This document shows positions 1,055 through 38,765 of a stretch of DNA of 64,000 nt, piece by piece. Every line of letters starts with the position of its first letter. Position 1 is the first letter of the stretch. The DNA lies in contig NW_026250407.1 of assembly GCF_024521635.1 (NCBI RefSeq), positions 434,001-498,000 of the forward strand. Reading direction: 5' to 3'. The translations under genes were made by a program, and so were the position numbers. This DNA comes from Tricharina praecox. Taxonomy: Eukaryota. The notes beneath the pieces were generated by a model. It did no database searches, was not told where the DNA came from, and saw only the letters and a program-made list of their open reading frames with translations.

Positions 1055-2476
1055 CTATTCGACAGCGATCTGCCGGCCACCCCTCCGTCCAGCCTCCATT
1101 CCAGCACCACTGCCACTGGGACCGCCACCGCTGCCCTGCTCCTTCTGCTGCTCCTTGGCAGCCCTCACAACCTGCAGAATGCTGCTCAGCGAGTCCTTCC
1201 ACACGTCCAGACGGTCGGCGACCTGCTCCCACTCGGACATGCCGAACGTCCGGCTCTCGGCACGGTGTATCAGGAACGTCTGGTTGAGCTGCGAGAGCTT
1301 TCCCTCGACCAGGCCGGCGCGGATCACATCGATGACCCAGAGCTCGACTTCCTCCGAGGGCACGTGCAGGCGGCGCGAGATGTTGATGTAGGGGAGCTCG
1401 CGGTCGGGGCACGAGGCGGCGAGAGACGTCAGCGTGAGCAGACGGATCTTGCGGTAGGCGATGGCGTGGTCAATGCCGTTGTCGTCGACCCAGCCCTCGT
1501 GCTCGTCGTTGAACTCGATGTAGTCCTCCAACTGGCCGCCGGCAAATACATCGTACAGTTGGAACAGCTCTGGGTCGGAGTCTTGGAGAGCCTGGATGGT
1601 GGGGAAGGTGGAGAGTTCCTCGAGGTCGAGACGGCTGGGGAGGTTGATGGCCGCCTTGACGAGGCGGGTGGCGAGCTCGCGCGCTTGTGGTGCCGATGCC
1701 TCTGCGTCCGGGAATGTCTGCAGGGCCTTGACAAGGAACTTGTAGAACTGCTCTTCGTCGCTGGCCTCCTCGGCGATGTTGGCGATCTCCAGGTAGAGAT
1801 CCCGGGCCTCCTCTACGCTGACCGACCACTCGGAAATCCACTTGTCGACATTCTTGAGCTGCGGGGCGAGGGTGTCGTACAGGCTGTGTGCGGCGATCAC
1901 CTTCAAGGTAGTGCGGTAGACGGGGTAGCGCGCAGGGCTGTTGACGGGGAGGACATTGAAGATGGTCGACAGGACCGAGATGACCAGGGCGGGACCGTTG
2001 TGCGGTGATGTCGGCGGTGGTGTGCTCAAGACCTCGAGGAAGGTGGCAATGTAGGTAGGGAACTCGGGCGACGAGCGGGCAAGGTGGATGAGAAGGTTGA
2101 AGGCGGGGATGAACTCTGAAAGTCAAATTAGTTCGACATCGTCAATGGAAGTGGTTTCGATGTGTCGCCAAGATGGAGACAAGGCGACAAAAAAAGTCAT
2201 ACCTCTCTCAGGTGCCGACGACAGTGCCGCGCTCGCGGCAACAGTCCTCTTCAGCGCCTCCTCCTTCTGGTCGTTCTCCACAAAGTTCTCGATGTCCAAG
2301 CTGAGGCCTTTCGAAGGATTCGTCTTGCTTATGGTATCGATGTACTGGGCGAGCTCGACGATCTGGTCTATCCGGCGCCATCTTCATTAGCCTTTCGTCC
2401 CTCATTCACTGCCCCTCAGACATGGCATACCGGCAAAGGTCCCCTCGACCATCAACGTGTTGATTTCAGTCGCCAT
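1055..2476 (-). CDS. eIF3m: Eukaryotic translation initiation factor 3 subunit M (PCI domain)
   Basis: Exons 2476-2431, 2367-2203 and 2115-1055 with GTATG donors and CTAAT branch points. Protein runs MATEINTLMVEGTFADQIVELAQYID...KIRLLTLTSLA...EVELWVIDVIRAGLVEGKLSQ, typical of fungal eIF3m. Confidence 0.92.
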
Positions 2477-4432: not shown

Positions 4433-4890
4433 ATGTCAGGCTTCGGGCGCCCTCCTGGGGCAATAACCTGGTCCCCAACACCGTCTGTACTCCCCTCGCG
4501 TCCTCAATTGTTTCTCGCCCATCCCACCATATCACGTGTTGACATTCCCACAGCCCGCAGCGGGGGTCCTTCCCCCTCGACCATGACAACGAGTGCAAGC
4601 CGGTAATGGTCGAGTACCTCGCATGCCTCAAGCGCGTTCGCGGCACGAACGATCACCAATGCCGGCTCATCGCGAAAGAGTACCTCAAGTGTCGCATGGA
4701 TCGGCAGCTAATGGCGAAGGACGAGATGGCGAATTTAGGGTTTCAGGAGGATGTACCAGCGGCAGCGGCGAAGGGGACGGTACAGGCGATTGAGAAATTG
4801 GCGGGGGGGGATAGGCTCGAGGAATTGAGGAGGGAGAATGCACGGCTTGTGGAGGAGAGGAAGAAACGCGAGGTAGCGGAGGGACGGTGA
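4433..4890 (+). CDS. COX19: Cytochrome c oxidase assembly protein Cox19 (twin Cx9C)
   Basis: MSGFGRPPG...[29 protein letters not shown]...CRLIAKEYLKCRMDRQLMAKDEMANLGF. Intron 4483-4553. Confidence 0.93.
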
Positions 4891-5063
4891 TGATGATGGG
4901 GAAAGGCGGGGTGGGGTGTAAGATAGTTGTGTTGTACAATATTTTATTTTTGCTATCATACCATTTCCATCTTATGCACCGTGCTCATCCATGCACACTG
5001 AGCAACCGAGCATCGGAACTTGCCACCTCCCCCTCCGCACCCATCCACAGCCAGCCCAGTGCG

Positions 5064-7266
5064 ATGTCTTGCGCGCAACCCAACCGCCTCCACCACCACA
5101 GTCTGACGCCGAACAGCTGTCTGATCGGGATCTTGCTGATAACCCGCTCCTCGGTCGGCCCAACACTGACATTCCACTACCCGCTACGGCCGCGCCTCGA
5201 ATCCTCGGCGCTGACACGAAGCAACTCGCCCACTACCTCGTCGTCGTCGGAATCCTCGGGCGAAGACGATGATGCCGACGAAGGGTCGAGGACTACTACT
5301 ACTGCGCCGCCGGGAGGGGCGACGGGTGGAGGTGCGGGGTATGCGGCTAGTGATACTGAGTCGAGGAGTCGGTATCATTCCGGCAGATCACGGCATGGTG
5401 GAGATGATGAGGAAAAGTCTGGGAAGGTGAAGAAGAAACATGGCGAGTACAATCACGTACTGGGATTCGAAAGCGACTTTCTGGCCGGGCTGTTGGCACC
5501 ACGCATGGCCGCGGCTAAGGGGAGGTTTGAAATGAGTGTAGACGATGTGGTGTTCCTGGGTGCACCGGTGCATGTCAGGCCAGATGGATTGTGGAGGAAG
5601 CGCAAGAAGCGGAGGAGGAAGAGTGAGCCTGATAATGGCGAGGAAGAGGAGGAGGAAGAAGGGGAGGCGAAAGAAAATGTGGCGGATTGGAACGTCGCCG
5701 CAGAAGGGGATGAGCAGGGGGAGAATGGGGAGACTGGGTTAAATGTTGTCCCTGCTGCGGCCGCGGGGATGGTGGGTGCGGAGGGGGACCACGGTGGTAA
5801 TGGGAATGCGAATGCGAATGGCGGGGAGCACCATCACGATGGCGATGCGGACGACGAGCGCGACGACGACGGTGACACGCTGAAGGGCTCCGGCACGATG
5901 AACATGTTCCACGTTGTCTTCGTCCTCAACCCACCGGAGCTAGAATATCACTTTCGGGTCAAGGAGATGTTCGAATATGTGGTGAAGCGGTTCTCTCGCG
6001 CGCTCAAGTACGAGCAGGCCAAGGATGGGTATGTGTGGCGGGAGGCGGAGAAGATCTCGCGCATGAAAGATCAGGCGGCTCAGAAAGGTTTGGTTTTGCT
6101 CCACCGTTTGTATCTGTTGCGTGCTGATCTGTGGATGAAGATACGAGCTTTGGGGAGCTGTGGAGGCAGATACTGGAACAGAGTAACCTGGCCTACGCTA
6201 TTTCGCGCATCTATAGCGATATCTCGCAGAGCAAGATTGCCCATGTACTGCTCAACAACTCGCTGGGACTTTCGCTACAGATCCCGATTGTCTCCGAGAT
6301 CGCAGTGTTGCCAACACTCACGGATCCGCAAGTGCCTGGCCTGTTTGTCTCCCTCTATCCCCTGATGTATCGTCACTAACACCAGCCAGGCCATTGACAA
6401 CAGCCAATTCATTCGGCGACGACGAAACTGAGGGCGATGTGTTGCTCGCAAAGCACTTTACCCTCCTCTTCCTCGAAGACGTCGAGTCAATCCTCAAAGA
6501 AATCGCCGCCGAAGCATCCGAATCATCAGCGTCACTCGCACACTTCGTTAAATCCGTGAAGCCTACGCTCTCCTTCATCCAAATTTCGCAGCAATGCGGA
6601 ATTCAACTCCAAGATATCCAAACCCTAGCACGGCACCTTGTGCACTGGCGCAAAGCACGGGCAATCCCCCCGATTCACCAGCGGGATACTTACATTGTCT
6701 CACCGAACGCGGACATGAAGCGGCTGTCGAGCCTAATCCCGCTCTATGCCAAAACTTTCCCCACACTTCCCGCTCTGCCAGTCATGTTATCGCTCCTCTC
6801 GGGAAAGCCAAAGCCATACGTTACCTTCATCCCCACCCGCGACCACCGCGGCGCATACCTTGAGATCCTGACCTGGCTCATCCGCTACAGCCTCGTCACA
6901 CAACTACGTAACTTCGCCTGGGTGAAGATTCCAATACACGTCAAGATGGCAGTGCATAAAGAACGGCAGATGCAGATGTCCCCCCAGCCGCCGGAGCCGA
7001 TCGAGGATGACGTCGACGAGAAGCTGGAGGAAGAGAGCTTTGTGCTGGAACCTAGTAGGGCCAGTGGCATCGAGAGTGCGTGGTTGGAGATGTGTACGCG
7101 CCACCAGCCCAAGGATGTGAAGATTCTTTTTGAGAGGATGGCGAAATATCTGAATGGGCAGCATGCGCTGGAGAAGATTGCGATTAGGGAGGGGATTAGT
7201 CGGAGAGAAGTCAGGAGAGTCCTGGTGGCTATGGAGTCGGTGTTGGTTTATGCTAAACACTGGTAG
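5064..7266 (+). CDS. NPR3: Nitrogen permease regulator 3 (SEACIT/GATOR1 subunit)
   Basis: N-terminal LIGILLITRSSVGPTLTFHYP; FEMSVDDVVFLGAPVH; MFHVVFVLNPP; ALKYEQAK; LARHLVHWRKARAIPPIH; YLNGQHALEKIAIREG. Introns 6088-6140 and 6343-6389. Confidence 0.9.
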
Positions 7267-7350: not shown

Positions 7351-8668
7351 TCACAACTCATCCTTCACATCCTCCTCAGGCTCCACCACAGTCCTCCCCT
7401 TCACTGGTTTCTCATCACAAACGACCACTCCGTGATCCAGCAGACTAACGCCCACATACTTCCCGCCCTCCAGCACTGCACCAGTACTAACCGGGCCATA
7501 AAACCCACCATCATCCACAAATACCGTCTCCCATCTCCACTCTTCCCTCCTTAGGGCTGAATTGGCAACATCATACTTCCTCTTCACGACCTCGACGGCG
7601 TCCTCCCGCATCTTCAGCAGTGGCAGCACCTTGGCCGTCAGTCCTCCGGGCTTCCTCGCCTCCGGGTTCTTACTGCTCTCTAACATTCCCCGCAGCGACG
7701 TGAAACCACTAACAAACAGCTCTCCAGCCGTAAACACGAGATTATCCGCCAGCACCGCGGCCCTGAGAAACATCGCGCCGCCGATCCTAGCCGGATCCGC
7801 CGGATCGTACTCGAATTCGTATATGCCCTTCAACGTGGCGACAGCCCAAACACGGTTCGTAGCAGTATCCACGGCCACACCATTCCCGAGCGCCAAGCGC
7901 GAGATCATATGTGCCTTCTCTATGCTGACCCCTCCCTCGCTATCGCTCGCAAGGGCAACGTGGACCAGACTCCCGCCGGGCGCAGCGGTCAGCAGCTCCG
8001 CCGCCAGCGCAATTACGTGCGCCGCGCCGCGCCGCGCGAACAGCAGGTCGTTGGTGAGATAGAACCCGTCCGGCCCCGTGGCGGCAACGGAGTTGGGCGA
8101 GGCGATGCGCGGGTGCTCCAGTGTTGCCACGTGTGTGGCCGCGCCGGTGGAGAGGGCTAGGTCGAAGACCTCGACCCGCGGCCCAGCACGCGCCTGGTTC
8201 ACGACAAAGAATCGTGTTCCCGAGGTGGTGTTCGTGGCCGAGATGCCGAGCGGGCGGAAGTCCGAGATGCCCAGGTGTGCCCTCGTCGGCGCCGACGCTG
8301 GTGAGGCGGGGTTGTAGATCCAGACCTCGCCCACGGGCAGCCCTGCCGGGATGTTCCCCGTTATGTGGTCCCATTGGAGCCGTGAGGGATCGCAGGCGAG
8401 CAGGAGCAGCGGCGAATTCGGGATCGTGCTGAAGTCTTCACAGTAGGCGAGGAGCGGGCGGTGGTGCACGGCGCAGGTGTGCGGTGTTGCGATTGCCGGG
8501 AGCGGCGGGACGAGGAAGAACGGTGAGCGCAGGGTGAGCGTCTTCCACAGGAGCGCGAGGAAGGAGATGAGCCCTATCCAGCGAAGCTGGGTGTTGGTTA
8601 CGGGGAGGGCACTGAGAATGTTAGTGAGTACCTATGATGGAGGAGAGACATAGTTACGGTGGTGCCAT
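7351..8668 (-). CDS. Paraoxonase/arylesterase-like six-bladed beta-propeller with N-terminal signal anchor and C-terminal KDEL
   Basis: Small first exon ATGGCACCACC, then intron to 8612, giving a hydrophobic N-terminus (WIGLISFLALLW). PON-like motifs CED, LLLLACD, FRPLGI, SPNSV, FYLTND, NGV, ADNL. Ends ...EEDVKDEL*. Confidence 0.8.
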
Positions 8669-9140: not shown

Positions 9141-11549
9141 CTAAAACTTCCCATTCTTCACTCCTTCCACCTTTCCGGTCACCTCGATACCCTCCGCCGA
9201 AAGATCAATCTGCTCGACTCCGATGTCGCCATTCCTCCACTTGCCCTCGAGCATATCGTTTGACTCCTTTGGCTTAACGCCAACAGAGGTTCCGACTGTG
9301 ACGTGGGGGATGTTGTTGGCACATTCCCACTTGTCGCCGACGAGGCTGGCAGTGATGGCCATGACACGTCCGTCCCAGACCACGGACTCGAGTTTGATTG
9401 TGCCGGTACCCATAGGTTCGCCCACCGCCTTCGCGTCGCTGTAGAGCTTAATGTAGCGCTCCCACATTTCCTTGTTCTGTGACTTGTTGGCATTGTGAAG
9501 GAGGGTTACGTGAAACTTTTGCTGTACACGGTGGGCGGACTTGAGCTCGTAGTAATAGGCACGCTTCTCCTCGGGGGCTGTGGCGATCGCCTTCTCGACG
9601 GCTGAGACTATGATGCTGGGAGGGAGGGAAACGCTGAAGTAGTCAACGTCCACCTTCTTCGACGTCTGTTGCTGGGGTTGCGTCTGCGCTCTCTTCGGGG
9701 CTGGCGTGGCGGAGCCCTTGATGGTGTGTTTGATCGCTGGCTTGTACTCATCGAAGGAAGCCTTGATCGCATCGTCCAGCGCTGCGGCGGATGGAATCTC
9801 AGGCACCAGCTTGGGATAGGCATGGTGGAGCGCCTTGACCACAGTCTCGAGGTTCTCCCTGGATTCCTTGAGCGGATCAAGATCGATGACATTGTCAAAG
9901 GAGCGGTCAGGGAATTCGTCGATATCCACCGACTGAAACCGATTCAAAAAGCCCTCCATAATTCCGATAATCTCGCTGTTGTTCTTGGTAGCGGCATGGA
10001 TGGTCTGATGGTTGTCGCCACGGCTGAGTACGCGCTTTCGGGTGATCTCTCGAATCTTGTCTTGGAGGTCCTTGTCGGTGCTGCTGTGGTGGACGTAATT
10101 AAGGGCAACAAAATGCGCCTGGTTGACCCCGGGGCTCATGTCGTCGATTAGCTGCTTGCGTTCGCGCTTTTGATGATTGTTTCGGTCTGCAATCACCGCA
10201 GGGCAAACCACGAGTGCCTTGGTGCAAGCGGCTGCAAAAGCCTGGGGCTTTCCCTTGCGAGCGGTGAGGTTGTCGTTCTGAATGTGAGACCAGCCAAAGA
10301 GTTTGGTCAACGCATGCGCAACAGTCGTCTTTCCGCAACCAATTGTAGCGACCGGAACGAGTACGAGCTTCAGGTTGCTGTCCTGACCTGTTCCCTTCTC
10401 TTCTAAGTCCATCCTGACGATATCGGCGCCCTTGAGACCGCTGTGGGCAAGGTATGCGTTTCGCAATTTGATGATGCCGTGGTTCATCTTGTATTGATCG
10501 GCCGCACCCTTGTTCTGAATGAAGTATGCAGAAGCAAACTTCAAGTACTCTCTGGTGATTTCCTTGTGGTTTCGGTACCTCGGTTCCTTTCCGGCAATCA
10601 GGGCCTTGGTGCATTCTCGCCACTGCCGGTACAGAAGGTAAGGCTCCTCGAACTTGTACTTAAAGAACCAGTCCTCCCAGTTGGGGTCGCTGGCATCAGT
10701 TCTCGCTTTGCATCGAATGACGAAACCCTCCACATCCTTCCCATCCCACGAACCCGTCTCCGCAGCTTCTTCCAGGAACTTCCGGAGCTGCTGAACATCA
10801 TCCTTAACGACATAGTCGATCTTGCGGAACGCCCACTCCTCGGCAAACTTGTGCACCTCCGGCATCGAGTATGTCGCAAAATCTCCGAGGTTGTAGTTGA
10901 TACCGTGAAGGTAGAGACCGGCCTGATCTCCCTCATACGCCAGGATATGCTCCTCAAAAGAATCATCACACAGCTCCGCCACGGCGGTAACATTGGCGTT
11001 GTAGAGCGTCTCCGCCAGATCCCGCCTCGTCTTCCCAATCTGCGCCAACTGCTTATCGACCCATCGCTCGCCAACAATCGCATGCGACGCTTCAGTCTCC
11101 TCCCTCGCACCAGTTGAATGCTTACTGCACACTAACAAGGTCCCATCCGGCAATCCCGAGATGAAAATGATGCACCCATTCTCCTTCACGGTGACTTCAT
11201 ATGGGGCCTTCGTATTGTCCGCAATCCACTCCCATTTGGTGCACTTCACCTCGTTAATGTTGAAGAATTTATCGTAACCGCGGATGGCGATGCGGTAGTT
11301 CCCGGAAACCTTGTCGCGCCATGTGAAGAGTCCGCGTGCGTATGTGGGGAGAGTGTGCTTCTTGAAGTCCTGCTCCTGGAATTTCCACGAGTCTACATTG
11401 TGCACAGTGTCTTCGATCGTGAAAGTGCTCTTTTTGCAGGAGAAGCCGTGCTCTTTGGGCTTTTTGCCGATGCCTGATTCGAGACGTGCGACAAGGGCGT
11501 TGACTGTGGCGGGGTCTTGGGGTTTACTGAGGGCGGGATCGGCCGACAT
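9141..11549 (-). CDS. TRL1: Fungal tRNA ligase (ligase, polynucleotide kinase and cyclic phosphodiesterase domains)
   Basis: 802-aa intronless ORF. Ligase motifs KENGCIIFISG and EGFVIRC; kinase P-loop ATIGCGKTT and DRNNH; CPDase HVT motifs (FHVTLLH, PHVTVGT). Confidence 0.96.
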   Translation of the reverse strand: MSADPALSKPQDPATVNALVARLESGIGKKPKEHGFSCKKSTFTIEDTVHNVDSWKFQEQDFKKHTLPTYARGLFTWRDKVSGNYRIAIRGYDKFFNINEVKCTKWEWIADNTKAPYEVTVKENGCIIFISGLPDGTLLVCSKHSTGAREETEASHAIVGERWVDKQLAQIGKTRRDLAETLYNANVTAVAELCDDSFEEHILAYEGDQAGLYLHGINYNLGDFATYSMPEVHKFAEEWAFRKIDYVVKDDVQQLRKFLEEAAETGSWDGKDVEGFVIRCKARTDASDPNWEDWFFKYKFEEPYLLYRQWRECTKALIAGKEPRYRNHKEITREYLKFASAYFIQNKGAADQYKMNHGIIKLRNAYLAHSGLKGADIVRMDLEEKGTGQDSNLKLVLVPVATIGCGKTTVAHALTKLFGWSHIQNDNLTARKGKPQAFAAACTKALVVCPAVIADRNNHQKRERKQLIDDMSPGVNQAHFVALNYVHHSSTDKDLQDKIREITRKRVLSRGDNHQTIHAATKNNSEIIGIMEGFLNRFQSVDIDEFPDRSFDNVIDLDPLKESRENLETVVKALHHAYPKLVPEIPSAAALDDAIKASFDEYKPAIKHTIKGSATPAPKRAQTQPQQQTSKKVDVDYFSVSLPPSIIVSAVEKAIATAPEEKRAYYYELKSAHRVQQKFHVTLLHNANKSQNKEMWERYIKLYSDAKAVGEPMGTGTIKLESVVWDGRVMAITASLVGDKWECANNIPHVTVGTSVGVKPKESNDMLEGKWRNGDIGVEQIDLSAEGIEVTGKVEGVKNGKF

Positions 11550-12473
11550 TGCGTGCGAGAAGGGTTGCTTGGTGGAAAGATAGCGGCGGTGATGCTGGTG
11601 TAGTGAGGGGTAGATGGTATGATATAAGGAGCGGGAGACAAAGCCGACAGGGGTTTTGGAAGAGGGTTCAAACTCGTAGGGTCTCTAAAGAAGTCCGTGA
11701 TGTTCTTTATTTGCGGGTGGAGGGGAAACAGATGCATACCTGCAAGCCGCTACCGCGCTAATGACGTTGACTCTTCGTAAGGCTGAACCCGAGGTGCATA
11801 CGGTGAGTGCTCCACGCAGGCGATGAGTCAGGGCAAACGATGTGACACATCTAGACATGATTGGGTACACTCAGTACTTCTGGCTGAGTATACTGATAAC
11901 TGCCAAACACTCTGTTCACCTCAAAGTTCTCCGGAAACTGAAACTGGACAGTATTCGGTGCCCCGGCGGGGAACTGGATTTGGCTCTAAAACTGGAACTG
12001 GAAACTGAGGCTATCCAAACGGGCCCTAAAACTTTCGGCGCCGAGAAGGAAGGTGGTGATCGAGGTGGAGCTCTTCTTGCGGTGAAGGATAATGAACAGA
12101 TGCGCGCAAGAAAGAAGGTCTCAAGGGTATTTCCAAGAATTATTCACCAGGAGGGATGTGCAGACGCCAATTGACTTCCGCCTAAGCAGTCACTTTTGTG
12201 TGCAGATCGCCCGGGAAAGTCACGGTCCATATTGCCAGACAAAATCCAGCAATGTTTCCTTCAGTCCATGATCCTCACTTCTCAGCTGAGTATTCAAAAC
12301 AGCTCTAAGATGCAAACTATGGTTACAAGTCACAATTAGGTAGAATGCCAGCAGAAAGACAAAAGCCCATGGTAAAAACAGTTCCTCCAAGTCAGACTAG
12401 GTTGAGCGTCCGGTGGCGTAGTCCTCTCGTATGACTTTCCCACACACCCCTCCCCCTCGATCTGCCCCCATGT

Positions 12474-13265
12474 TTAATGCCTCGGGGCCAACCCAGGTAC
12501 ACCGGCGTACCTCTCCTCTCTCTCGGTCTTAAAGAACAATTGCAGAAAGAACTCCTTCTGATCGGCGTCATAATGCGTCCAAAACTTCCCCGGGCTCCGA
12601 TCCACCTCCTTCGCCTGCAGCTTAAACGAGACAGTCTCGTACGGTTCCGCAGCGACCAGTAGGTACTGATAGTTTTTATCCGGGGGGACCTCGATGCGCT
12701 GTTCAAACGCACTCATGAACCGGTACCTGGGCTTAATCTCCGTACCGATCTCGGGGTACTGCAGCTGAAACAACAGCCCAAGCTGCCTCGTGACCGGATC
12801 TCGAATCTTGGTGATTTTGTACCCCGGCCGTCCGATTTTGATCAAGTTCTTCCGTGGCGCGATCAACTGCTGCCCGATCATCCCCTGCGGTAGACCGGTT
12901 ATCGGATCTAGGTTTTTCCCTTCTTTTGCCTCGCGCGCGGCGCGCCGCGCAAGGTTCGTTTGGTGCTTGCGGCCCTGTGTGTGCGCGAGGTAGGATCCAT
13001 CGTTCTGGTGCACGGTGAGACAGAGACGGCATTCGAAGGAGCCGACGTGGTTGCGGAAGCTGTGGGAAGCAAAGATCGGTCAGTATCAGCTTGTATAGAC
13101 GCGACGCTCGGCAAGAGTCAAGACTCACAAGTATGGATCCTTGTCAAGATCGATAGTCTCGAGCGCGAGCTTGCGCAGACGCTCGCGGCGGTCTTGGTTG
13201 CTGGCGGAGTGCGAGGCGACACCGCCACCACCCATCTTCGAGCCAACACGTCCTTCGTAGGCCAT
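12474..13265 (-). CDS. PRP11: Splicing factor 3a subunit 2 (SF3a66/Prp11/Sap62)
   Basis: MAYEGRVGSKMGGGGVAS...DRRERLRKLALETIDLDKDPYF, one intron, then FRNHVGSFECRLCLTVHQNDGSYLAHTQGRKHQTNL (U1-type Zn finger) and KIGRPGYKITKIRDP. Confidence 0.95.
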
Positions 13266-14100
13266 AGTTTATCGTTTTATTCGTCTTTGAGAGGATGCAA
13301 TGTGGGGTTTTCGGGGCGAGAATCGTGAATGTCCGTCGTGGTGCTGGTGGTGCTGGTGGTGTTGGTGGCCGAGGGTTGGTTCTAAATTCTGGGGGACGTG
13401 TCGCGCTCAAGGTTGAAGATTGGGCTTGGCATACACTAAAATGAGGACACTATGTATCACTAAGCTGCAGGGGATCCTTGACACTTGGCGACCCGGAATC
13501 GAGTGACAGCTCATGTAGTTATTCGTGCCGACAGCTTCTGCAGTCGCTCCGGACGCAACAAAATCCACCCGTTCTCCACCAATATTGGTCCAAACAACAG
13601 GATTAAAGATTTCTAGTAAGGCTGAGAAGTAGGAGAGTCCAGTAGAAAAGAAATATTACTCATGGCTGTGGAACGTAGCGTCGAGGGCGCCGTATGTAGT
13701 GTTGAAGGATTCGGATACAATGTTGCTATATAAGGAAATGGAGCACTTAACCGAAAACAAAATCATCGCCTCACAAGCCACACCAGGTATGATACCTATG
13801 CCAGCCACACCCGGTTCAGACAAGGCCCGAGCGGCTTGTCCTCATCTTTGTTGGATCGTCTACATAATTACTGTCGCACTCACGTGCCTAGAAGCTAACT
13901 GTTTGCCCACAATCACTATTTCTCACAACAAAAACGGAACACACATTACGAAGGCCATCGGGTATGTCCCATCTAATCGTCTACTCGCATACAGACAGCT
14001 TAAACTCTTTTTAAGCCGGGGATCGAAACTGAAAGATCGCAGTTGAGGGATTGAGTTCTCCACTCTCGTGGGTAGAGTATCCTTGGTGGCGGGGCCTCGA

Positions 14101-14757
14101 TTAGTTGACGTTGACGCAACCATGATCGGAAGTAGGGGCGTTACCATCCAGCAGGTTCGGCATCTTGTTCTCATTGTCTCTGTATTCACGAGTGACTGGC
14201 TTGTTTTCGTCTCCACCAGCCACTCCGCCTTCGCGACGCAGCTTTAGAAGGTTCAACTCCTTGTCCAGGCGGTCACGCAGACACTTGATGTCATTGAAGA
14301 CCTGGAAAAAAGCGCCAGCTACAGCTTCACGGGCGTGGTAGCCGGGTATAGCATCGGCAATACTGATCACTCTCACGAGAAGCTCAAAGCTAGTATCGTG
14401 AGGGTTCACAAGCCCGTAGGCCGCGAAGCCAACCAGTGGGTTCTCGTGGAGCTTGGAAACCAGCAGATCACCGAGACGCCAGTCCTCCTTGTTGAAATAA
14501 AAGAAGGCGCCTTTGGTAAAAGTACCTACTTCATGTTAGAAAGACTTAGGAGGTAATAGATAGTGCAAATGACCTTGGAGGAGGTCGAAGTGCACCTCCA
14601 TTCGGTCGGTGCGCCTGCTCGAGTCAGCCAGTGAAATTTCATCCAAATTAAAAGGGCGAAGTTCTTACAGCTGCTCTCCAATATAGAATTGAAGGATGCC
14701 AGTATTGTTGAATCCGACCGGCGGAATCTGCCTGTACTGCTGTCTTGATTCTTCCAT
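14101..14757 (-). CDS. Divergent RNA polymerase II subunit RPB11-like protein (RpoL/Rpb11 family paralogue), about 184 aa
   Basis: Hand-spliced exons 14757-14669, 14614-14574 and 14525-14101 (555 nt, in frame). Introns GTAAGA..GCTGAC..CAG (54 nt) and GTCATT..CTAAC..TAG (48 nt). Product includes AFFYFNKEDWRLGDLLVSKLHENPLVGFAAYGLVNPHDTSFELLVRV...AREAVAGAFFQVFNDIKCLRDRLDKEL, matching the remembered Rpb11 pattern FTFNKEDHTLGNLL...P.V.FAAY...HP....FELRVQT...P.EA. The start codon is uncertain because the frame is open upstream to 15042. Confidence 0.72.
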
Positions 14758-15526
14758 GGGTATAGGTGCAGGTGGTATTGTAGCGGTATTCTGTAGATAT
14801 TTGCAGGCGGCGGTAGAAGGGAGAGCTGTGGTGAAGTGGTAGTAGAAATGACAGGTGGGTTGCAGTGAGTTGTTTTTGGGCGAATAAGGGCGGCCTGACC
14901 CAGCGGTAAAAGCTATACGATTTAAAAATCTCAAACAACTCATCGCAAACACTGGTTGCATCTCTGGCACTCGCTCTACTTCTTTTCGAAGCATCACTAC
15001 CGGTACTGTAGCTTGTATGGTAGATACATATATTCGTTTCATTTTTTTGTGCGACTAAGAGGCCATTCGAAACGCTCTTGTCACCACATCCCACTTAAGC
15101 AACCCTGCAGTACATAATACGTCCATGGCGAGGAGCCCTACCCCGGTCCCGGATTGAAAAACGGTTAGGCGTTCACTCGGCAGGCACCACAACAATCCTC
15201 CCGCTGTTATGTACTTCTAACAGCAGCTGAGCTCTTCCTCCCTCCACTGCACGCACCGTCTTCAACTCTTCATCCACAGAACACAACAGCCTCGTAACTT
15301 CGGAAGTGAATCCCACAGCTTTTCTTAGGCCTCTTCGGTCTTCACCCGAATAAACAGAGACAGCATTAACATCCATATTTCAGCGCTCGACATTTACTAG
15401 AAAGTAAGTCACGTTGATGGACCGGGGGTCGACCGAACTACTTACCGAGCGCATAGAGAATTGACAACGAGTCCCAGATAACCAGATAGTCCGAGCATTT
15501 TCCCAAGACAACTTCAAGATATAACA

Positions 15527-16966
15527 ATGTCTGCCGACAAGATGGAGCTTGACCTCACCGAAATGGAGCTTGACCCAGTCATAGTGGAGTCGGAAGAGCT
15601 TGACGCAGGCAACAAGGGAAGAGCCCAAAAGGATGGGGATGTGCAGAACGATTCCGATACGGAGGACCTTTCAAGTGTCGAGGACAGCGGGGACATCAAG
15701 GACGTGGTCGATATGGAGGATGGCGGTGACTCTAATCGCGCAAATGAGTACGAGCTCTGGGTGTAAGTTGCTCCCCAATCCGTCTAACTTCCATCCTCAT
15801 ACCTCTCAAGCTCGTTTATGATCCCGAAGAAACTAAGTTTCAAATTTTCGATTTTCAGGAATCAGCAGCGCGAGCAGAGCAAGGCTATTCTTGAACAGCT
15901 TATGTCTAACAAAAGCTCCGTACTCCCGACTTCTTCCAAGAAGTCAGGTAGGAACAACCGCATTACGAAGGCTCGTGTGCTAGACCAAGAACCCAGACGC
16001 TCTAAGAGGGTGATGGTGCAGGCTGCATGCCGGGAGAGTTTGGAATCTCACACCGATCCCGCCCCGCTGAATCCCGCTAAGAACTACAGTCCGGAGCCGA
16101 AGACACCCAAGCTCCGTGTTGACGGCAAGCGTTTCGGTGCGATCCCGGGCGTCAGCATCGGCGACGTGTGGGAGTTTCGCATCAAACTAGGCGCGGCCGG
16201 AGTTCATCCTCCTCCTGTCGGCGGAATCTTCGGGGGCCCAGAGTCGGGTGCGTACTCGGTCGTCCTGTCCGCAGGATACCCGGAGGATGTCGATGAGGGC
16301 GACAAGTTCACCTACACCGGTGCGGGTGGCCGGGAACTGAAAAGGAAGAACTTGCGCACGGCCACACAGAGTAAGGACCAAGAACTCGTCCGTGGAAATG
16401 CTGGCCTGCACAAGAGCTTCCAGACGGGAAATCCTGTACGCGTAGTTCGCGGGTACAAGAACCCGTTAGGGCCCGAGACCGGGTATCGCTACGATGGCCT
16501 TTACAAGGTCGTCAATGCGTATACCGCCAAGAGCCAGGATGGAAAATTCCTGGTTTGGCAGTTCGATTTCGAGAAGATCCCCGGCCAAAAAACCGTGAAC
16601 TACCATGCAAAGGAAATCAAATCCAAGGTAAATAATCTAGAGAATGTCGACGAGAATAAGGCCGCGATGCTGACTGGACGGAAGAACGAGACAGCAGATA
16701 CCAATGCTGAAGCCGGGCCATCTCCGCCTGCCACCGATGGGGAGGACGACATTTCTGGAGCCCTGACCTCGTCGCCTGCCACCGATTCGGAGGACGATAA
16801 CACTGGAGCCCCGACCTCGCCGCCTATCACCGATATGGAGGACAACAATAATGGAGCCGCGCTGTCACCGGCTACCACCGACACGGAGAACGACAATGCT
16901 GGAGCCCTTACCTCGCCGCCTGCCACCTATGGGGAGGACAACAAGGCTGACAAGGACGACTGTTGA
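15527..16966 (+). CDS. Stand-alone SRA/YDG domain protein (UHRF1/VIM-type 5mC reader) with acidic N-terminus and repeat tail
   Basis: Exon 15527-15762, intron 15763-15858, exon 15859-16966. SRA motifs FGAIPGVSIG, GVHPPPVGGIFG, GAYSVVLSAGYPEDVDEGDKFTYTGAGG, PVRVVRG and GYRYDGLY. No RING, PHD or SET domain seen. Confidence 0.9.
16711..16950 (+). repeat. Coding tandem repeat, about 5 x 48 nt (16 aa) in the SRA protein tail
   Basis: AGPSPPATDGEDDISG / ALTSSPATDSEDDNTG / APTSPPITDMEDNNNG / AALSPATTDTENDNAG / ALTSPPATYGEDNKAD. Confidence 0.85.
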
Positions 16967-17874: not shown

Positions 17875-18528
17875 GGTACCGTACTACTGTACGTAGTGGC
17901 CGGTTTTTCCGAAGGGATCAAGAATCGGTGGAGATTCGAGAGTGCTGTCACTCGCGGCCGCGATTGGGGCACGGTACTATAGTTATGGCCGGAAAGACTC
18001 ATGGTTGGTTCGCCTGGTTCCTGCACTTCCGAGAGGTTTTTATTTCGAGAGGCAGGCGACTAAGAGCTTTGTAACAATAATGGTATTCCTCAATGTGAGT
18101 GCTGTACAATACATACAATCCTCCGTGTTTAAGAAAGTGCGATAAGTACAAACAACAAGGGTCCTTTCGGCTTCTGTGACGAGATGATATCGCATGAGCA
18201 TACTACATAATTCGGTAGAACCGCGCCAAAATAATCAAAAACAAACAAGCGCAATCCATGAATCCCATCATGGATTGAATTTAGAAAAGTTAGATCGTCT
18301 TGAGCCACTTTTGAATGGACGCTTGTGGTTGTGGTTGTGGCTGTGGTCGCGGCCGTGGTTTCGGTGAACGTATGTACTCTAGACACGCGACGCGATGAGG
18401 CGCTTGTAAGCGGCGCCAGCTTGCATTGTTCCCTCGGCCAGCACCACCGGCACCACCACCATCTACAACACCTCCACCTCCACCGAACCACACGCGACCG
18501 ACAACACCACGCGCGCGCGCCACCCACA

Positions 18529-19456
18529 ATGTCGACGCCCTCCTCCCCACTTTCGCCATACTCCTCGCCCTCCCCCCCGCCGCCCAAGCGCCGGGCCTCC
18601 ACCGCCTTCAGCTCTCCGCACTCGTCTGACCACGAGCACCCGGACCTGCTATCCTCCGACGTCTCATCGGACACCAGCGGCTCGGTTCCGGGCTCGCCGG
18701 GCCCTGCGGACACGCACGATGACGACGGCCCCGCGGAGCAGGTCTCGGTGTGCCGCTGGGACGGGTGCCTCGCGGACATGGGGAACATGGACGATCTCGT
18801 CAAGCACATACACGAGGAGCACATCGGCACGCGCAAGGCGACGTATGCGTGCATGTGGGACGATTGCATGCGCAAGGGGATTACACATGCGAGTGGCTAT
18901 GCGCTCCGCGCGCACATGAGGAGCCATACCAAGGAGAAGCCGTTTTATTGCTCGCTGCCGGGTAGGTTGCTCCGATACAACGCTGGATGGGGGGAGGAAC
19001 GACGGGCGCTAATGCGACGCCGCGCTGCTAGAGTGCGATAGGAGTTTTACCCGCTCAGATGCCCTGGCGAAACATATGCGCACTGTGCACGAGACGGAGG
19101 CCCTGCGCCCCTCCGATCCGGTACCGAAGAGTCATCCGCTACACCCGCACAATGCGCCGAGAAAGGCAAGAGCTGGAGGAGGCGCGAGGACTGATCGCTC
19201 AGCACCCGCATTTTACGGGGCTGAAGACGGCTACGACAGCGATGAGGAAAAGCTCCCGCCGAAGGAGCTGCTGAGGTTGCTGAAGCAGAAGCAGACATGG
19301 GCCGAGAGGGAACAGCAGGACCTCACGGATGCTCTGGCGAAGTTGGAGGGGAAGAGGAAGGAGGCGTGGGTTAAGAAGGAGATGCTGCTCAACAGAGTGC
19401 TGGATATGGAGTTGGGCGAGGAGGAGGCCCGGAAGGTTAGCTTGGATTGGGTGTAG
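18529..19456 (+). CDS. C2H2 zinc-finger protein similar to S. pombe INO80 subunit Iec1
   Basis: CRWDGC..MDDLVKHIHEEHIG, YACMWDDC..HASGYALRAHMRSHTKEKPFYCSLP, intron 18962-19031, then ECDRSFTRSDALAKHMRTVHETEALRPSDPVPK and a C-terminal coiled coil. Confidence 0.85.
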
Positions 19457-23634: not shown

Positions 23635-23887
23635 TGATGTTCCATGGATGACACTTCGGTTCCTGCAGGAAAGTGTAGGACCAAGTTTAGTCTTTCAGAT
23701 GTCCGATAACACCGTCACCAGAGCGTAGGCGATATGCATATATAAAAGTTTACGACGGTGACTTTGATGAAACTAGATAACTATATCAGACTTCGCCACA
23801 GTTCCCAAGCCACTACATCCGCAAATACCAGCTATCACACCAAATCCAGTTCCAAGCCCATCACAAACCTCCAAACAACCTTCCAAA

Positions 23888-24895
23888 ATGCCCACAATCA
23901 CCTCCAAGCCCACTGGCCCCATCGGCTTCGGCCTCATGGGTTTCACCTGGACTCCCACGCCTACTCCGGACGCGCAAGCCTTCGCCGCGATGTCCGCCGC
24001 GCTCGCGGGCGGCGCCAACTGCTGGAACGCGGGCGAGTTCTACGGGATGCCAGGCACCCGCACGGCGAACCTTGAGCTTCTGAACCGGTACTTCACCGCG
24101 CACCCATCCGACGCGGCAAAAGTGGTGTTGTCGGTCAAGGGCGGGGCGGACCTTACCAGCGACCACTTGACGTCGCAGGGCGACCGCACGGGCGTCCGCC
24201 GCTCCGTCGAGAACGTCCTGCGCGTGCTCGACGGAAAGGTCTTCCTTAGCATATTCGAGTGCGCAAGGGTCGATAAGAATACCCCCATCGAGGAGACCGT
24301 CGCCGCCATCGCGGAGTTTGTCAAGGATGGCAGGATCGGCGGAGTGGGCCTTAGTGAGGTCAGCCCCGAGACGATCCGCCGCGCGGCGAAGGTCCACCCC
24401 ATCGCTGCCGTAGAGATGGAGGTCAGCCTCTGGAGCCGCGAGGTGTTCGTCCCCGGCGGCGTGGCCGACACGTGTGCCGAGCTCGGGATCCCGATCATGG
24501 CGTATAGCCCGTTGGGCCGCGGGATCTTGGCCGGCAGGTTTACCAAGCCGGAGGATCTTGAGGATGGGGATATGCGCAAGATTTTCGACCGCTTCCAGCC
24601 GGGGAACTTCGAGAAGAACCGGGTGATCGTCGAGAACCTGGATAGGATTGCCGAGAGGAAGGGGTGCAGCAAGGCGCAGGTCTGTTTGGCCTGGGTGTTG
24701 GCCCAGGGAAATAAGCCCGGCAAGGCGACGATTGTTCCTCTGCCCGGAGCGACAGGCGTCGATAGGGTGGAGGAGAATTGTAAGCTTGTGGAGTTGAGTG
24801 AGGAGGAGCTGGAGGAGGTTAATGGTATGATGAACGAGGTGGATGTGCATGGCGGCAGGTACAATGAGTGGATGGCGCCCGGTTTGATGGTCTGA
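23888..24895 (+). CDS. Aldo-keto reductase (pyridoxal reductase/Yakc-like)
   Basis: Intronless 335 aa. GPIGFGLMGFTW, WNAGEFYG, VVLSVKGG, IFECARVD, GLSEV, AYSPLGRG, PLPGAT. Confidence 0.92.
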   Translation: MPTITSKPTGPIGFGLMGFTWTPTPTPDAQAFAAMSAALAGGANCWNAGEFYGMPGTRTANLELLNRYFTAHPSDAAKVVLSVKGGADLTSDHLTSQGDRTGVRRSVENVLRVLDGKVFLSIFECARVDKNTPIEETVAAIAEFVKDGRIGGVGLSEVSPETIRRAAKVHPIAAVEMEVSLWSREVFVPGGVADTCAELGIPIMAYSPLGRGILAGRFTKPEDLEDGDMRKIFDRFQPGNFEKNRVIVENLDRIAERKGCSKAQVCLAWVLAQGNKPGKATIVPLPGATGVDRVEENCKLVELSEEELEEVNGMMNEVDVHGGRYNEWMAPGLMV

Positions 24896-25425: not shown

Positions 25426-28124
25426 TCACACAAATTCTGCGTCAGGCATGTTGAACAGGCCCTGCACACTCATCCAATCTATCTCCTTCTTCTGAAGCGA
25501 AAAGAGATGGTGCTTGCCAGTACCCCGCTTCTGTGACGTTGTCGGATCGAGACAAACCAACTTCTCTTTTGCGTCCACTGAGCTCACCTGGTGACCGACG
25601 CACGAGTACTTGGTTCCACGTCTCACATCCAAACAGACGAGTGCGTAGCCTTGCGGAGTCATTACCTGTGCCATAATCAATCCGCTCAGCAACATGGTCC
25701 ACATGGTGAGCGGAACGTCGATCGAGAAGCCGTCGTCGGAACGTCTCGTAAAGGCGAAGTTGTAGGGCCCACGCGTGTGGAGGATCGTCGTGCGCTCCTC
25801 GTGCAAAAGTTTGGCGATTATGAGTTGCTCGGGAATGCCGGTGACGTCGTGGAGTTCGCTGATGCTTTTGCATTGCACCGTGAAGTTCAGAAAGTCTCGC
25901 CACGACCAGGTCTCAACTCTGACGCTTTTGCAGATCAGTACAAGAAAGGCGGCGAGAACCCAGGCGTACTGTTGGATATATTTCATCAGCTTCGAGTTAA
26001 ACAAGGATTACTTGGGGGGAAGGCATACAGTCGTAATATTGAAAGGATCGACTGCCACGATTCTGTTGCGAACTGTGAAGCCTATGGCCAGACCACCAAC
26101 CACAAGAATGGCAGCCGAAGTGATAACGGTCCATACGTAGAATCGACAATTCACTATTACGGCTTTTTGATCGAAAATCCATTCATTCATCCTTTCGTTC
26201 GCATCTCTGATGCTGAGGGCATTGACACGCGCAGATGCATTTCGAGAGGACACGGTAGTGTCCATGAATCGAGTGGAACCGGAAATAGCTGCGATCTTCG
26301 GCCCAGAAAGGAGCTTGTCCCTGGTCATCAAACCTTTGGACAATGTTGAAACATAACCGCCTTTTTCGCCCCCCGCATTCTCAAAGTCGCTGGTGTATAT
26401 ACGGAAAAATGCCTTGAATTTCGTCGTCTCATAAGGTCGAATCGTTTCGTCCGGATTCTCGACATTGGTGAGAGCAATCAGCCTGATTATGTCAATGGTT
26501 GCTGAAACAATCATTGGAGATGTTATGAGAAGTGCGACTGTGACAGTGATGATATTTCTCATGCTTTCCAGAGGCAAGTGTTGTTCCGGAGTGTGTCCCT
26601 GGTCCAAAGGGTTGTGAGGAGCTCCATCTTCATGGCCTACCATGTCGCTACTATAACTCCAGGTAACCTTAGTCTGTAGCGTGGAAGTGGTAGTACCTGC
26701 GATTGAAGGCGGGTTGCGAGTATATTCTCTCCGGAGGGATTGCACGGTTCTGTCCAGAATAGCAAAACCCGAGTGAGCGATATTCAGGCAGGGCGGGTCC
26801 GAAGTGGCTAGAAGCTCTCCCTCGCGGTCCCTGAAAAGCAGTGTTTGGAAGCCCTCGAGCCCAGTCTCGCTATGGAAATCAGTAAGGATTGTATGTACAA
26901 TGGCTGGATGAATGGCCAAGTATATGCTTACTAAACAATGGAGCAGATCTCGTATTTGGTGAGACAACCAATCCTCTGTTCCGTCAAACTGGCAAGCAGA
27001 TACTGCACCAGGTCTTCGAGTTGCCTATATTTCTTTTTCTTGGCAATATAAAACTCTTTGAGGCCTTGATCCATGGTTTCAATATCTCGTTTCTCCCCAG
27101 GACCGCCTCCGACCACTTCCGGAAGTTTCCGCTTCGAATTGTCGGACTCGGTCTTCTCTTCGGTTCTGTCCAAAGACACGGTAGAAAAAGCGGCCGGTTT
27201 TTCGGAGATGATCTTTATCGCTGTTGACCAGGTAGCCAGGATTGCAAGACAATTTTGTGCCCACTCATCACTGTAAGCGGCTTGAATGAAAAAGCGAGCG
27301 AAGACCGCCGTGGTGTAGTCCACCAGACAGAATATGGCAGTGCGGCTTTCCTCGTCCGTCATTTCGTCGTCCATGGAACCGGTCTCGAATCTACAGAGAA
27401 ACCTCCGGTCCCGCTCGTATGCCTGGCTGACGTGGAGATCTTTGCAATGCTTCAGAAGGAGGAACTCATTGTCGTGGCGTCTGATCCTATCACAATCCAA
27501 AATGCGGTCGGCCAGATTTGCAAGGCAACGGTATGCACGCGGCGAGCCCGAGTCATCCTTGAACAGAGTATCATCGGAGAACTGCAATTCTTCCTCTCTA
27601 TTGTTGGCGTACCTCACCAAGCGACGTACTTCCCTCTCCCACAGCTCGCGTGACTGGTCGTCGGTGACGCCATAGTGCTCCAGATGATCAAAGGCTGGCA
27701 AATCCTTCGGGGCGATATCCCTTCTGATATTAGAGGGCACCTTAAAATCTTTATGCTCTAAGACACACTTCATGACGTCTTCCTCTTTGATGTTAGGCTT
27801 CTGGGCCCGTGGGACTTGCTCGTTGTTCAGCATGCCAACAGCCGATGCATGGCTTGCGGGTTCGACGGGCTTCTTCTTCTGACTTCCGACAAAGTTTATG
27901 AACTTCGCTTTGACCGCATCCAGCCGTCCCAAAGACGTAAGAGGCGGTATTGTAGGGGGAATTGGAAGAGCGTTTACTCCCAATGGTGTGGGTAGCTGCC
28001 GCCGCCGTGGTACCTTCGACCGCGGCGAGTGATGCGAGCTCGCGAAAGTGACCGCGGGAATCGAGCTTAAAATCGGGACCGGGACCAGACCTCCAGGAGC
28101 CGCCAGAGTGGGTGTCGAAGCCAT
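25426..28124 (-). CDS. Uncharacterised fungal membrane protein (about 860 aa, C-terminal transmembrane helices)
   Basis: Three track ORFs join through introns 26931-26870 (GTAAGC..ACTGAT..TAG) and about 26028-25970 (GTATGC..CAG). TM-like segments YVWTVITSAAILVVGGLAIGF and YAWVLAAFLVLI; conserved-looking WSWRDFL, CKSISEL and TRGPYN. Start codon uncertain. Confidence 0.7.
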
Positions 28125-29389
28125 GGGGATTATCGCAAGGTTTCTGAGAGGTATTGTTTGCAGAGAGGTTGCTGGTTCCTCGATCGAGTTAACAGGGAAG
28201 TGTTTCAAACAAACGGGAAAATAGATCAGTGGGACAATATCCTAGAAGTCGGAGCTTGAGCTGGTATTTGGGTAGACCTAATACCGTAATGACAGACGTA
28301 TGACACCGTTCTATGGGTATATAACACATCTGGTTCGTAGCTTTGCGGAGTTACTCTTTCTTTTCTTTTTCCCCGTCATCAATTGCGTGCGACCATCCCC
28401 CGGCCTGCCGCTGCGGAATCATTAAGGCAGTGGGTTGCACCGCCCGGCCTTCCTCTTTCGCTTCCTCCTCCGTACCTGATTTCCACTGGAGTCTGGCTGC
28501 CTCCTCCTCCTCTTCCACCACCACTGCGGCGGGTCGGCTGCTAACACACGTTGTCACCAGGAAGTCTAGCACTGCCTAACTACACCGCTCATCCGCAAGC
28601 AGTTCCAAGACTTTTGTGCGGCCCTTCGCTGACGCATTCTATGTGCCGAGGACAGAGCCTCGGGGCGGGCTGGCCTTCTTTCTTCCTGGGCGGTTCTAAC
28701 TTCTCTTTACGTGGAGTCCAAAAATCCTTTGATCGTCTTCCACCTGGGGTAGTTCTTGAAAAGGTGCTCCATCCCCGCCCGACATCGAGGCGCACACCCC
28801 TTTTCTCCTTCGCTTCATCATGGATTGTATGCGACCTGGCCGTATCATGGTGGACACGTCGATTTACGTTGGTATTGCGGGCAACCAAGCATTGTGCGCA
28901 CTTTTGTGCGAATAATTTCTATAATTGAGGTGTGTCTGCGTCAGACCCAATGAGAAACACACTTCCTTCCCTCGCAAGGCTCTAGAAGCACATCGCATTG
29001 CCAACCAATACCACATTGACAACAGACCCCCACAATCCTCAGCTGCATCCGATAATGTGCCGTCTCAGACGGACAAGCGCCGCTGGGCGGTCTATCGCCG
29101 ATAAGGTCTATCCCGTTCACGAAGGTGCTCAGCTGAAAATCCTCACATCTGTGAGGACGATACGCTATTGACGTGACGAGGCGCAGGCTGCAGCATCTTC
29201 GAAGTCTCGAATATCCCCACCTCCAGTTCGTAGGTAAAGGCGTGCGTGCGTGATAAGGTTTAATATCTGGTTGATCCCCAGAGCACTCGTCTAGTTTAAA
29301 CTACCAGTGACCACGACTACCGTCCTGCTGCCATATCCAACACCCCGCACCAAACACGAAGCGAATTTCACAGCAACACAGGTGACAGA

Positions 29390-32871: not shown

Positions 32872-32961
32872 AGAACCCGAACCCGAATAGAACCCGAACC
32901 CGAATAGAACCCGAACCCGAATAGAACCCGAACCCGAATAGAACCCGAACCTGAACCCGAA
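32872..32961. repeat. Tandem repeat (GAACCCGAACCCGAATA)n immediately upstream of the 32961 ATG
   Basis: About 5 copies of a 17-bp unit built from GAACCC. Confidence 0.9.
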
Positions 32962-38187: not shown

Positions 38188-38765
38188 GATTTGGGTTTCG
38201 CTTGGGCTGCATGGAGTTGTGAATTTGGTCGGGTTGGATTCCCTTGGGTTTAATAGGTTGGGTCTGTTTCTTTTTTGGCTTTTAGCTCTGGTGACTACAT
38301 TTTGTTTCGACGTTTCCTTTGTTAGTATACCACGGTGGTAGGAGTAGAGCACTTAAATACCAAGAGCCCGGCGTAGAGAAGGGGAGGAGGAAGAGGGGGA
38401 GGAGAAGGAGAATATGAAGTAAAACTGAAGTCATCGTGATCCCAGTGCGAGCGAGCGAGCGGGTAAATCCAAAAAGTAGTGGCTTTACTCTACCGTGCAA
38501 GGGATCACGTTCTGAACGCGACTTCCCGCCAGCTTGAATCAATTGTCTCTCGGAACCACCGCAACGCATCGTTCCATACCTATCCACGTCCATCCCCCAG
38601 CAAGCCACACACCTGCACCACCACCACCATTGCGATCATGAGCAGCACGCGCTCTCAATAATTGAATCATCATATTAAACAGCAACACCCCACCCCACAC
38701 ACACACACGCCCGCCCGCCCCACCACACCACACCACCGCCGCCTCGGGCACCCACCACTACCACA

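Follow-up and report, generated by a model that had tools for sequence, protein, structure and literature searches.

RPB11 is the small alpha-like subunit of RNA polymerase II (Pol II); it is essential in yeast and is recognized by a family signature, EDHT-L-G-N...Y-x3-HP. Here we analyze a gene for an Rpb11-like protein on the reverse strand of a 64,000-nucleotide (nt) stretch of Tricharina praecox DNA (contig NW_026250407.1, positions 434,001 to 498,000), which is referred to as the window and supplies all coordinates given below. The gene is real, expressed and, as far as seen, previously unannotated, and its function is uncertain. The reading that we consider probable is that this transcribed four-exon gene, which encodes 193 amino acids (aa) and lies between SF3A2/Prp11 and SAD/SRA, is a rare and lineage-restricted RPB11 duplicate that is dispensable and only weakly constrained.

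Among described cases, the human POLR2J family (POLR2J2/J3, hRPB11b) comes nearest to the window gene, and for this family the available portion of the published account states that the hRPB11 isoforms differ mainly in short C-terminal regions and that one of them has a partner of its own, ATF4 (PMC6981380). The parallel with the window gene would lie in the presence of extra, lineage-specific RPB11 copies whose products are unlike the housekeeping subunit; in contrast to the human family, it is the core domain itself that has diverged in the fungal copy, with an insertion. A 2026 review of alpha-like subunits describes, in its available portion, plant AC40 paralogues and roles outside the holoenzyme, and that same portion contains no word beginning with 'fung' (PMC13374769). 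The literature searched, with subscription journals and supplements outside its scope, yielded no description of a fungal Rpb11 paralogue. AC19/RPAC2 of Pol I and Pol III and archaeal Rpo11 belong to the same superfamily and share the fold, and their matches to the window protein are clearly weaker.

Compared with canonical Rpb11 (POLR2J/yeast RPB11, PF13656), the window protein is alike in its fold, in the order of its elements, in its best sequence matches and in 19 of 29 near-invariant columns, and the N-terminal strand region encoded by exons 1 and 2 is, in our reading, of similar length. It differs in that EDHTLGN is replaced by EDWRLGD, HP by NP and an arginine of the FELRV strand by leucine (R49L); in addition, a 6-residue loop insertion precedes the C-terminal helix and the domain is extended by an N-terminal segment and a tail of ~90 residues. 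A profile score below the Pfam cut-off, fast evolution and a broken orthologue further set the window gene apart from the canonical one.

Transcription, splicing and gene model

The gene is transcribed and spliced. Two public runs from two studies (X1 and X2), whose library type was only guessed as RNA, contain 0.39 and 0.34, respectively, of the sampled words of 13950..14900, and the run contigs aligned to 13700..15200 span 13870 to 14804. The initial annotation had proposed splice junctions at 14668/14615 and 14573/14526, and both were recovered in an X2 contig that skips the two introns, with one joint (14613>14668) omitting the 54 nt of intron 1 and the other (14523>14572) omitting the 48 nt of intron 2. 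The stretches skipped as aligned are 14614..14667 (+1 cut) and 14524..14571 (+2 cut), respectively, and the introns read CT..AC on the forward strand, which is GT..AG on the reverse strand. A contig from X1 stops at 14668 with 15 loose letters that, in our reading, correspond to the first bases of exon 2 in reverse complement. A further joint, 14080>14144, is present in one X1 contig and one X2 contig and skips the 63 nt of an intron that the initial annotation had not seen. The simplest explanation for contigs in which three GT..AG introns are missing is that they are complementary DNA. Two soil metatranscriptome runs (X3 and X4) contained no contig at the locus (0/2). The open reading frame (ORF) at 14248..14556 on the forward strand (102 aa) was rejected as a gene, since every joint is GT..AG in the sense of the reverse strand.

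The gene model that emerges lies wholly on the reverse strand. Its 5' untranslated leader occupies 14758..14804, a minimum length given that X1 and X2 contigs both extend to 14804, and no ATG was found between 14804 and 14758. The ATG at 14757 begins exon 1 (14669..14757; 89 nt, coding), which is covered by X1 and X2 contigs and encodes the N-terminal extension together with the start of the Rpb11-like N-terminal strand. Intron 1 (14615..14668; 54 nt; GTAAGA...CTGAC...CAG) is attested by the X2 joint and the X1 loose end and leads to exon 2 (14574..14614; 41 nt), which is defined by sequence and contigs and has a counterpart, also of 41 nt, in the orthologous metagenome locus L002. Intron 2 (14526..14573; 48 nt; GTCATT...CTAAC...TAG) has an unusual donor and is attested by the X2 joint. 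Exon 3 (14145..14525; 381 nt), covered in part by contigs, encodes the entire Rpb11-like dimerisation domain and the start of the tail, and thereby contains EDWRLGD, NP, the 6-residue loop insertion and the long C-terminal helix. Intron 3 (14082..14144; 63 nt; GTAACG...CTAAT...AAG) is followed by the coding part of exon 4 (14011..14081; 71 nt including the TAA stop at 14013..14011), which is covered by X1 and X2 contigs and whose frame appears in the ORF list as 14011..14100 on the reverse strand. The 3' untranslated region spans at least 13870..14010, with the first X1 contig record starting at 13870.

The corrected coding sequence joins exons 14757-14669, 14614-14574, 14525-14145 and 14081-14011 and encodes 193 aa. 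For introns 1 and 2, the coordinates, branch points and in-frame stops described initially are all present in the sequence, and each of the two introns carries one in-frame TAA, which is why the ORF list shows the gene in fragments only. The three-exon model that had been built from them (555 nt when spliced, 184 aa) is right in its joins and wrong in its end coordinate, C-terminus and length, as it missed intron 3. The stop on which it ended (14103..14101) falls inside that intron and is therefore removed, so that the coding sequence runs on to 14011; exon 4 supplies 22 new C-terminal residues in place of the last 13 of the earlier model, and the Gly codon split across the joint of exons 3 and 4 is preserved.

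Two further observations concern the introns and transcripts. The intron lengths of 54, 48 and 63 nt are all divisible by three, with one in-frame stop in each, and retention of intron 3 alone would produce the C-terminus of the 184-aa model; the divisible-by-three pattern is not kept in L002, where intron 2 measures 46 nt. A 194-nt X1 contig (record 2) matches only 42 bases of the locus, at 14015-14056, with one other letter and a T inserted at 14029, and its flanks (loose ends of 16 and 135 letters) are unlike the window. This contig may be chimeric, may stem from a related sequence elsewhere or may represent a second form of the transcript.

An Rpb11-type fold in an insertion-bearing clade

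The encoded protein is of the Rpb11 type in its fold and lies closer to Rpb11 than to AC19. With exon 3 as the protein-level query (P0001, 140 aa in the frame of the initial annotation), the sole Pfam match was RNA_pol_L_2 (PF13656; 22.6 bits, E 8.5e-5, residues 8-61). A phmmer search against the PDB sequences returned 19 at E <= 10, led by human RPB11-a (E 3.2e-6) and including yeast Rpb11 (1.3e-4), with RPAC2 (AC19) reaching just E 0.48-0.72, and a feature search of the ESM Atlas returned Rpb11, Rpo11 and RPAC2 clusters at 0.89-0.90. An AlphaFold2 model of exon 3 residues 1-126, based on a 12-row alignment with exons 1 and 2 outside the model, has a mean predicted local distance difference test score (pLDDT) of 82.8 and displays the alpha-motif fold of a strand, a helix, two strands and a long C-terminal helix (E6-11, H12-27, E31-37, E45-53 and H64-102). 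In blocks of 10 residues the pLDDT is 76-98 across residues 1-100 and 91-98 over the two helices, and the tail alone is of low confidence. Foldseek gave 40 PDB matches at E <= 0.001, of which the first 14 ranks all belong to Pol II chain K (Rpb11), with 25-28% identity, a probability of 1.00 and a template modelling (TM) score of 0.58-0.65 by query length; AC19 chains appear from rank 15 with 17-20% identity, and AC19 and archaeal Rpo11 together cover 16-28%.

Pfam, phmmer, AlphaFold2 and Foldseek therefore agree on the Rpb11-type identity that had been proposed from the sequence. The profile match anticipated at that stage was also obtained, nearer to Rpb11 than to AC19, but with a score below the gathering threshold of the family. 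Homology to Rpb11 is secure despite this score because the positional orthologue in L002 scores 70.8 bits with the same profile; two other relatives, P0003 and P0006, score 63.6 and 55.2 bits.

The motifs EDWRLGD and NP are present as initially described, and the family signature is lost with them. The H and T of the signature and the histidine of HP are shared by 7-8 of the 8 canonical rows of our alignment, and the window protein has W, R and N at these positions, with D for the N of LGN. Of the 29 near-invariant columns, defined by agreement among at least 7 of the 8 canonical rows, 19 are retained in the window protein and 23 in that of L002. Five losses among these columns are unique to the window (H15W, T16R, H40N, R49L and L79I), the first four of them at columns invariant in 7-8 of 8 canonical rows.

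Close relatives of this protein are few. The initial homologue search gave a single match among 48 candidates, the 91-aa fragment P0002, which is 99% identical, and a full HMMER scan of 1.84 billion representatives gave 12 proteins at E <= 1e-3, namely this fragment, P0003 (248 aa), P0004 (261 aa), P0006 (226 aa) and eight canonical or other RPB11-type proteins. A profile with long tails (A1) matched two proteins among 4578 candidates, neither of them new. When a domain profile of four proteins (A3) was searched against proteins of at least 173 aa, 25 proteins were obtained at E <= 1 among 6723 candidates, with P0003, P0004 and P0006 at 130-160 bits and all others at or below 74 bits. Seven of the lower matches were read as sequence and proved to be canonical RPB11, except for the AC19-like P0034, which scored 35 bits against 58-74 bits for the fungal RPB11 proteins; the remaining ones bear RPB11-type names or Pfam domains, and some of them are gene models of excessive length. 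These searches yielded no insertion-bearing protein with an NCBI or UniRef name: the clade members all come from unannotated contigs, and the named database proteins found are canonical RPB11.

The loop insertion that marks this clade is located between the last strand and the C-terminal helix and comprises 6 residues in the window, L002, L003 and P0003 and 4 residues in P0006. Of the 8 canonical rows, 7 lack it; in P0008 the insertion is a different one. Phylogenetic analysis with IQ-TREE used 13 rows and 98 columns (the window, L002, L003 with X at its breaks, P0003 and P0005-P0013), omitting P0001 and P0002 as window duplicates, P0004 as equal to the L002 protein, and P0014-P0034. In the resulting tree the five insertion-bearing rows (window, L002, L003, P0003 and P0006) lie on one side of a branch with support of 87/91 and the eight canonical rows on the other, and the insertion clade was recovered in 83% of 200 bootstrap trees. 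Together with the loop insertion, the relatives P0003, P0004 (the L001/L002 gene), P0006 and L003, which all derive from ENA/Logan/JGI metagenome data, share with the window PHD or PHH after the HP position. In contrast to the window copy, they keep EDHT-L-[GA]-N (the N-terminus of P0006 is not comparable), score above the Pfam cut-off at 55-71 bits and have much longer tails, with called ORFs of 226-261 aa. The window copy is the most diverged member of the clade, with 45-47% identity to L002 and L003, which are 65% alike.

Other database proteins show departures of a different kind. P0009 (341 aa; an NCBI hypothetical protein of Penicillium taxi) is a diverged Rpb11-type protein that lacks the loop insertion and has ~95 additional N-terminal and ~150 additional C-terminal residues; this may reflect either an independent duplication of RPB11 or a Penicillium gene model that is too long. 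P0014 and P0019 are canonical RPB11 proteins with odd inserts that resemble translated introns, one positioned just ahead of the VPNAAVF strand, 1-2 residues from the position of the window's intron 2, and the other between YKV and PHP, a place without an intron in the window gene, which hints at intron positions both shared and unshared.

Scanning of JGI metagenome contigs with the A3 profile gave eight loci, three of which are informative. L001 and L002, mutually 99.65% identical, have the gene order of the window: C2H2 zinc finger, SAD/SRA, the Rpb11-like gene (the source of P0004), SF3A2/Prp11 and the tRNA ligase Trl1. L003 contains SAD/SRA and the Rpb11-like gene and displays the SAD/SRA side alone, as its contig ends there. 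The position between SAD/SRA and SF3A2 and the positions of introns 1 and 2 are common to the window and L001/L002, and L003 agrees in the two intron positions. The other five loci (L004-L008) are long bacterial-looking ORFs that share the word NPLVGFAAY alone and were dropped as chance matches. The L002 gene is intact and keeps EDHTLGN and HP. Its introns of 54 and 46 nt occupy the same two positions and enclose an exon 2 of 41 nt, and both the odd donor of intron 2, GTCATTTG, and the branch point TCTAAC are conserved. By analogy with the window gene, L002 would encode a protein of 346 aa with a long charged, Pro/Ser-rich tail.

The orthologue in L003 is broken. One nucleotide is deleted behind the codons for LGNLLVS, a Cys codon of L002 is replaced by an in-frame TGA, and the intron 1 acceptor is changed from CAG to CTG; as these three lesions lie on one contig, the copy is a probable pseudogene. 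At its start (L003 2740-3300), the ATG aligned to that of the window meets a TGA two codons on, and a second ATG overlapping this early TGA opens the frame that continues.

Evolutionary rates and the standing of the copy

The window copy evolves several times faster than the neighbouring genes and than its L002 orthologue. Nei-Gojobori estimates between the window and L002 over 110 codons of exon 3 gave a nonsynonymous rate (dN) of 0.437, a synonymous rate (dS) of 1.06 and a ratio (omega) of 0.41, against an omega of 0.014 for SF3A2 (98% identical), 0.049 for the zinc finger gene, 0.20 for Trl1 and 0.22 for SAD/SRA, which bears out the fast evolution noted at the outset. Three-point branch estimates over 96 codons of the window, L002 and L003 assigned a dN of 0.276 and an omega of 0.66 to the window branch, 0.128 and 0.21 to L002, and 0.120 and 0.53 to L003. 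The window-branch dN exceeded those of L002 and L003 in all 497 usable replicates of 500 bootstraps, the 5-95% bootstrap range of the window-branch omega was 0.32-1.65, and in the 13-row tree the maximum-likelihood end branches measured 1.21 (window), 0.19 (L002) and 0.40 (L003). Constraint is thus clearly weaker in the window copy than in L002. In a substitution-only simulation of neutral change (d = 0.42, 2000 trials), the 193-codon frame was open in 0.55% of trials and the 98-codon domain in 10%; because the frame is so seldom open, coding constraint must have acted for much of the window branch.

These features can be accommodated in a model in which the protein most likely pairs with an Rpb3-type partner, since both helices of the alpha motif are kept and confidently predicted. 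The copy would then, without being essential, stand in for canonical Rpb11 or compete with it on the Pol II assembly platform, and new, lineage-specific contacts would be open to the variable tail alone. The window copy appears to have lost the EDHTLGN...HP signature and most of this tail, and under weak constraint it would be dispensable and may drift towards loss, as in one relative.

Several points weigh against the interpretation of the gene as a weakly constrained, dispensable duplicate. The window protein scores 22.6 bits where the Pfam gathering score of RNA_pol_L_2 is 27, and the support for the clade is moderate (87/91, not starred) in a tree of 13 rows and 98 columns that is rooted on the long-branched P0008 (2.07) without an AC19 or archaeal outgroup. 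The rate figures are rough because a dS near 1 is close to saturation, and the window omega range of 0.32-1.65 is compatible with neutrality and with positive selection. A single metagenome contig is the source of the L003 lesions, which could in part be assembly errors, and both transcript-bearing runs are typed only as 'RNA?'. Finally, paralogy is something that we infer from sequence comparisons, and the pairing with Rpb3 is a prediction.

The same observations bear on the alternatives. That the gene is instead a dying duplicate, transcribed and spliced but with a functionless protein and an open frame that is no more than a leftover of constraint in the recent past, the copy being on its way to an L003-like pseudogene, is a possibility that we hold only tentatively. 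It would account for a window-branch omega of 0.66 whose bootstrap range includes 1, for the loss of four signature residues shared by 7-8 of 8 canonical rows, for a tail far shorter than that of L002 (proteins of 193 against 346 aa by analogy), for the three lesions of the L003 orthologue and for the great rarity of the family in databases. It is less easily reconciled with a frame that is open across four exons with three working splice sites, as only 0.55% of simulated neutral frames are open at d = 0.42 even with indels uncounted, or with a confident AlphaFold2 model across the domain and the retention of 19 of 29 near-invariant columns. The initial annotation had itself named disrupted orthologues as evidence that would speak against its proposal of a fast-evolving, possibly neofunctionalised paralogue, and here the two orthologues differ, L003 being broken and L002 intact.

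Two readings that give the copy a new role are both improbable. In the first, the gene would be an RPB11 spin-off of a small group of filamentous fungi, a second alpha-like subunit with a loop insertion and a fast-changing tail. Its partner, outside the standard core of Pol II, would be Rpb3 or a second copy of itself, and it would either regulate polymerase assembly or serve a specialised form of Pol II; in the copy of the window species, the start of the dimerisation helix would have been remodelled by selection and not by decay. In the second, which we regard as quite improbable, positive selection would have given the copy a new function, be it as a specialised subunit of a polymerase, as a decoy for Rpb3 or as an alpha-like module that works outside Pol II. 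A window-branch dN 2.2 times that of L002, the clustering of changes in the signature at the start of helix 1 and the retention of frame and fold would all fit neofunctionalisation, as would the capacity of alpha-like subunits to act outside the holoenzyme, described in the available portion of the review cited above (PMC13374769). However, every comparison gives an omega below 1, a test of positive selection would need more than three taxa, the L003 orthologue is broken and the protein is without a known partner or phenotype. The specialised or decoy function suggested initially is consequently not upheld, as a window-branch omega of 0.66 (0.32-1.65) and one broken orthologue fit relaxed constraint at least as well; the rewritten start of helix 1 and the reduced tail likewise fit relaxation at least as well as selective remodelling.

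Comparison with relatives indicates that the window gene is almost certainly not the sole RPB11 of the organism. We read it as a paralogue because it belongs to a separate, insertion-marked clade, its positional orthologue is broken, its rate is far above that of its ordinary housekeeping neighbours, and canonical RPB11 lies beside PAN1. This last point derives from four Aspergillus/Chaetothyriales models (P0022, P0029, P0030 and P0032; 1441-1604 aa) in which an RPB11 domain is fused to PAN1, an actin cytoskeleton-regulatory protein, most likely because annotation merged adjoining genes; its position beside PAN1 in these Eurotiomycete gene models places canonical RPB11 at another kind of locus. 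The claim that this is a paralogue and not the housekeeping copy is therefore supported indirectly, by the separate clade (87/91) and the L003 lesions. Within the 64-kb window no second Rpb11-like locus was found, with six of seven queries matching only 14212-14571 and the AC19-like query matching nothing. Although this would be expected if the gene were the organism's only, strongly diverged housekeeping RPB11, that explanation is scarcely credible, as the housekeeping neighbours are ordinary (SF3A2 is 98% identical to that of L002, with an omega of 0.014), the window protein lacks residues common to 8 of 8 canonical fungal rows, the copies group apart from canonical Pezizomycotina RPB11, and a sole RPB11 is unlikely to be broken as in L003 given that the gene is essential in yeast.

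Genomic surroundings and implications

By Pfam, the neighbourhood of the gene in this filamentous ascomycete consists of ordinary fungal housekeeping genes, and the Pfam scan of the window gave no indication that the Rpb11-like gene lies in a biosynthetic cluster. At lower window coordinates lie eIF3m (1058-2122, reverse strand), NPR3/NPRL3 (4815-7263, forward), the tRNA ligase Trl1 (9144-11684, reverse) and SF3A2/Prp11 (12477-13079, reverse). On the other side, the forward strand carries SAD/SRA (15788-16963), a Zap1-type C2H2 finger (18304-19038), a P450 (21431-22423), an aldo/keto reductase (23777-24892), DUF7025 (29300-30370), RSE1/CPSF_A-type propellers (38679-42930) and Tim54 (51034-52209), followed by an APH-type kinase on the reverse strand (52377-53654). 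Long open frames of 338-658 aa at 26011-28241 (reverse), 32955-34595 (forward) and 62025-63998 (forward) had no Pfam match at E <= 1e-4, and a further frame of this set, at 7354-8631 (reverse), had none at E <= 1e-3.

Rpb11 is treated as a conserved fungal gene and as part of the assembly platform of Pol II. An expressed, lineage-restricted duplicate with a remodelled dimerisation signature would, if the interpretation is true, constitute a natural experiment on how much change this platform tolerates, and it could represent a rare case of Pol II subunit diversification in fungi, comparable to the human POLR2J family and the plant AC40 paralogues. The finding also exposes a gap in annotation, as the clade is known from unannotated contigs. 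Should the gene prove to be a decaying duplicate only, its interest would be confined to showing, in a clear-cut case, how a paralogue of the core machinery arises and is lost.

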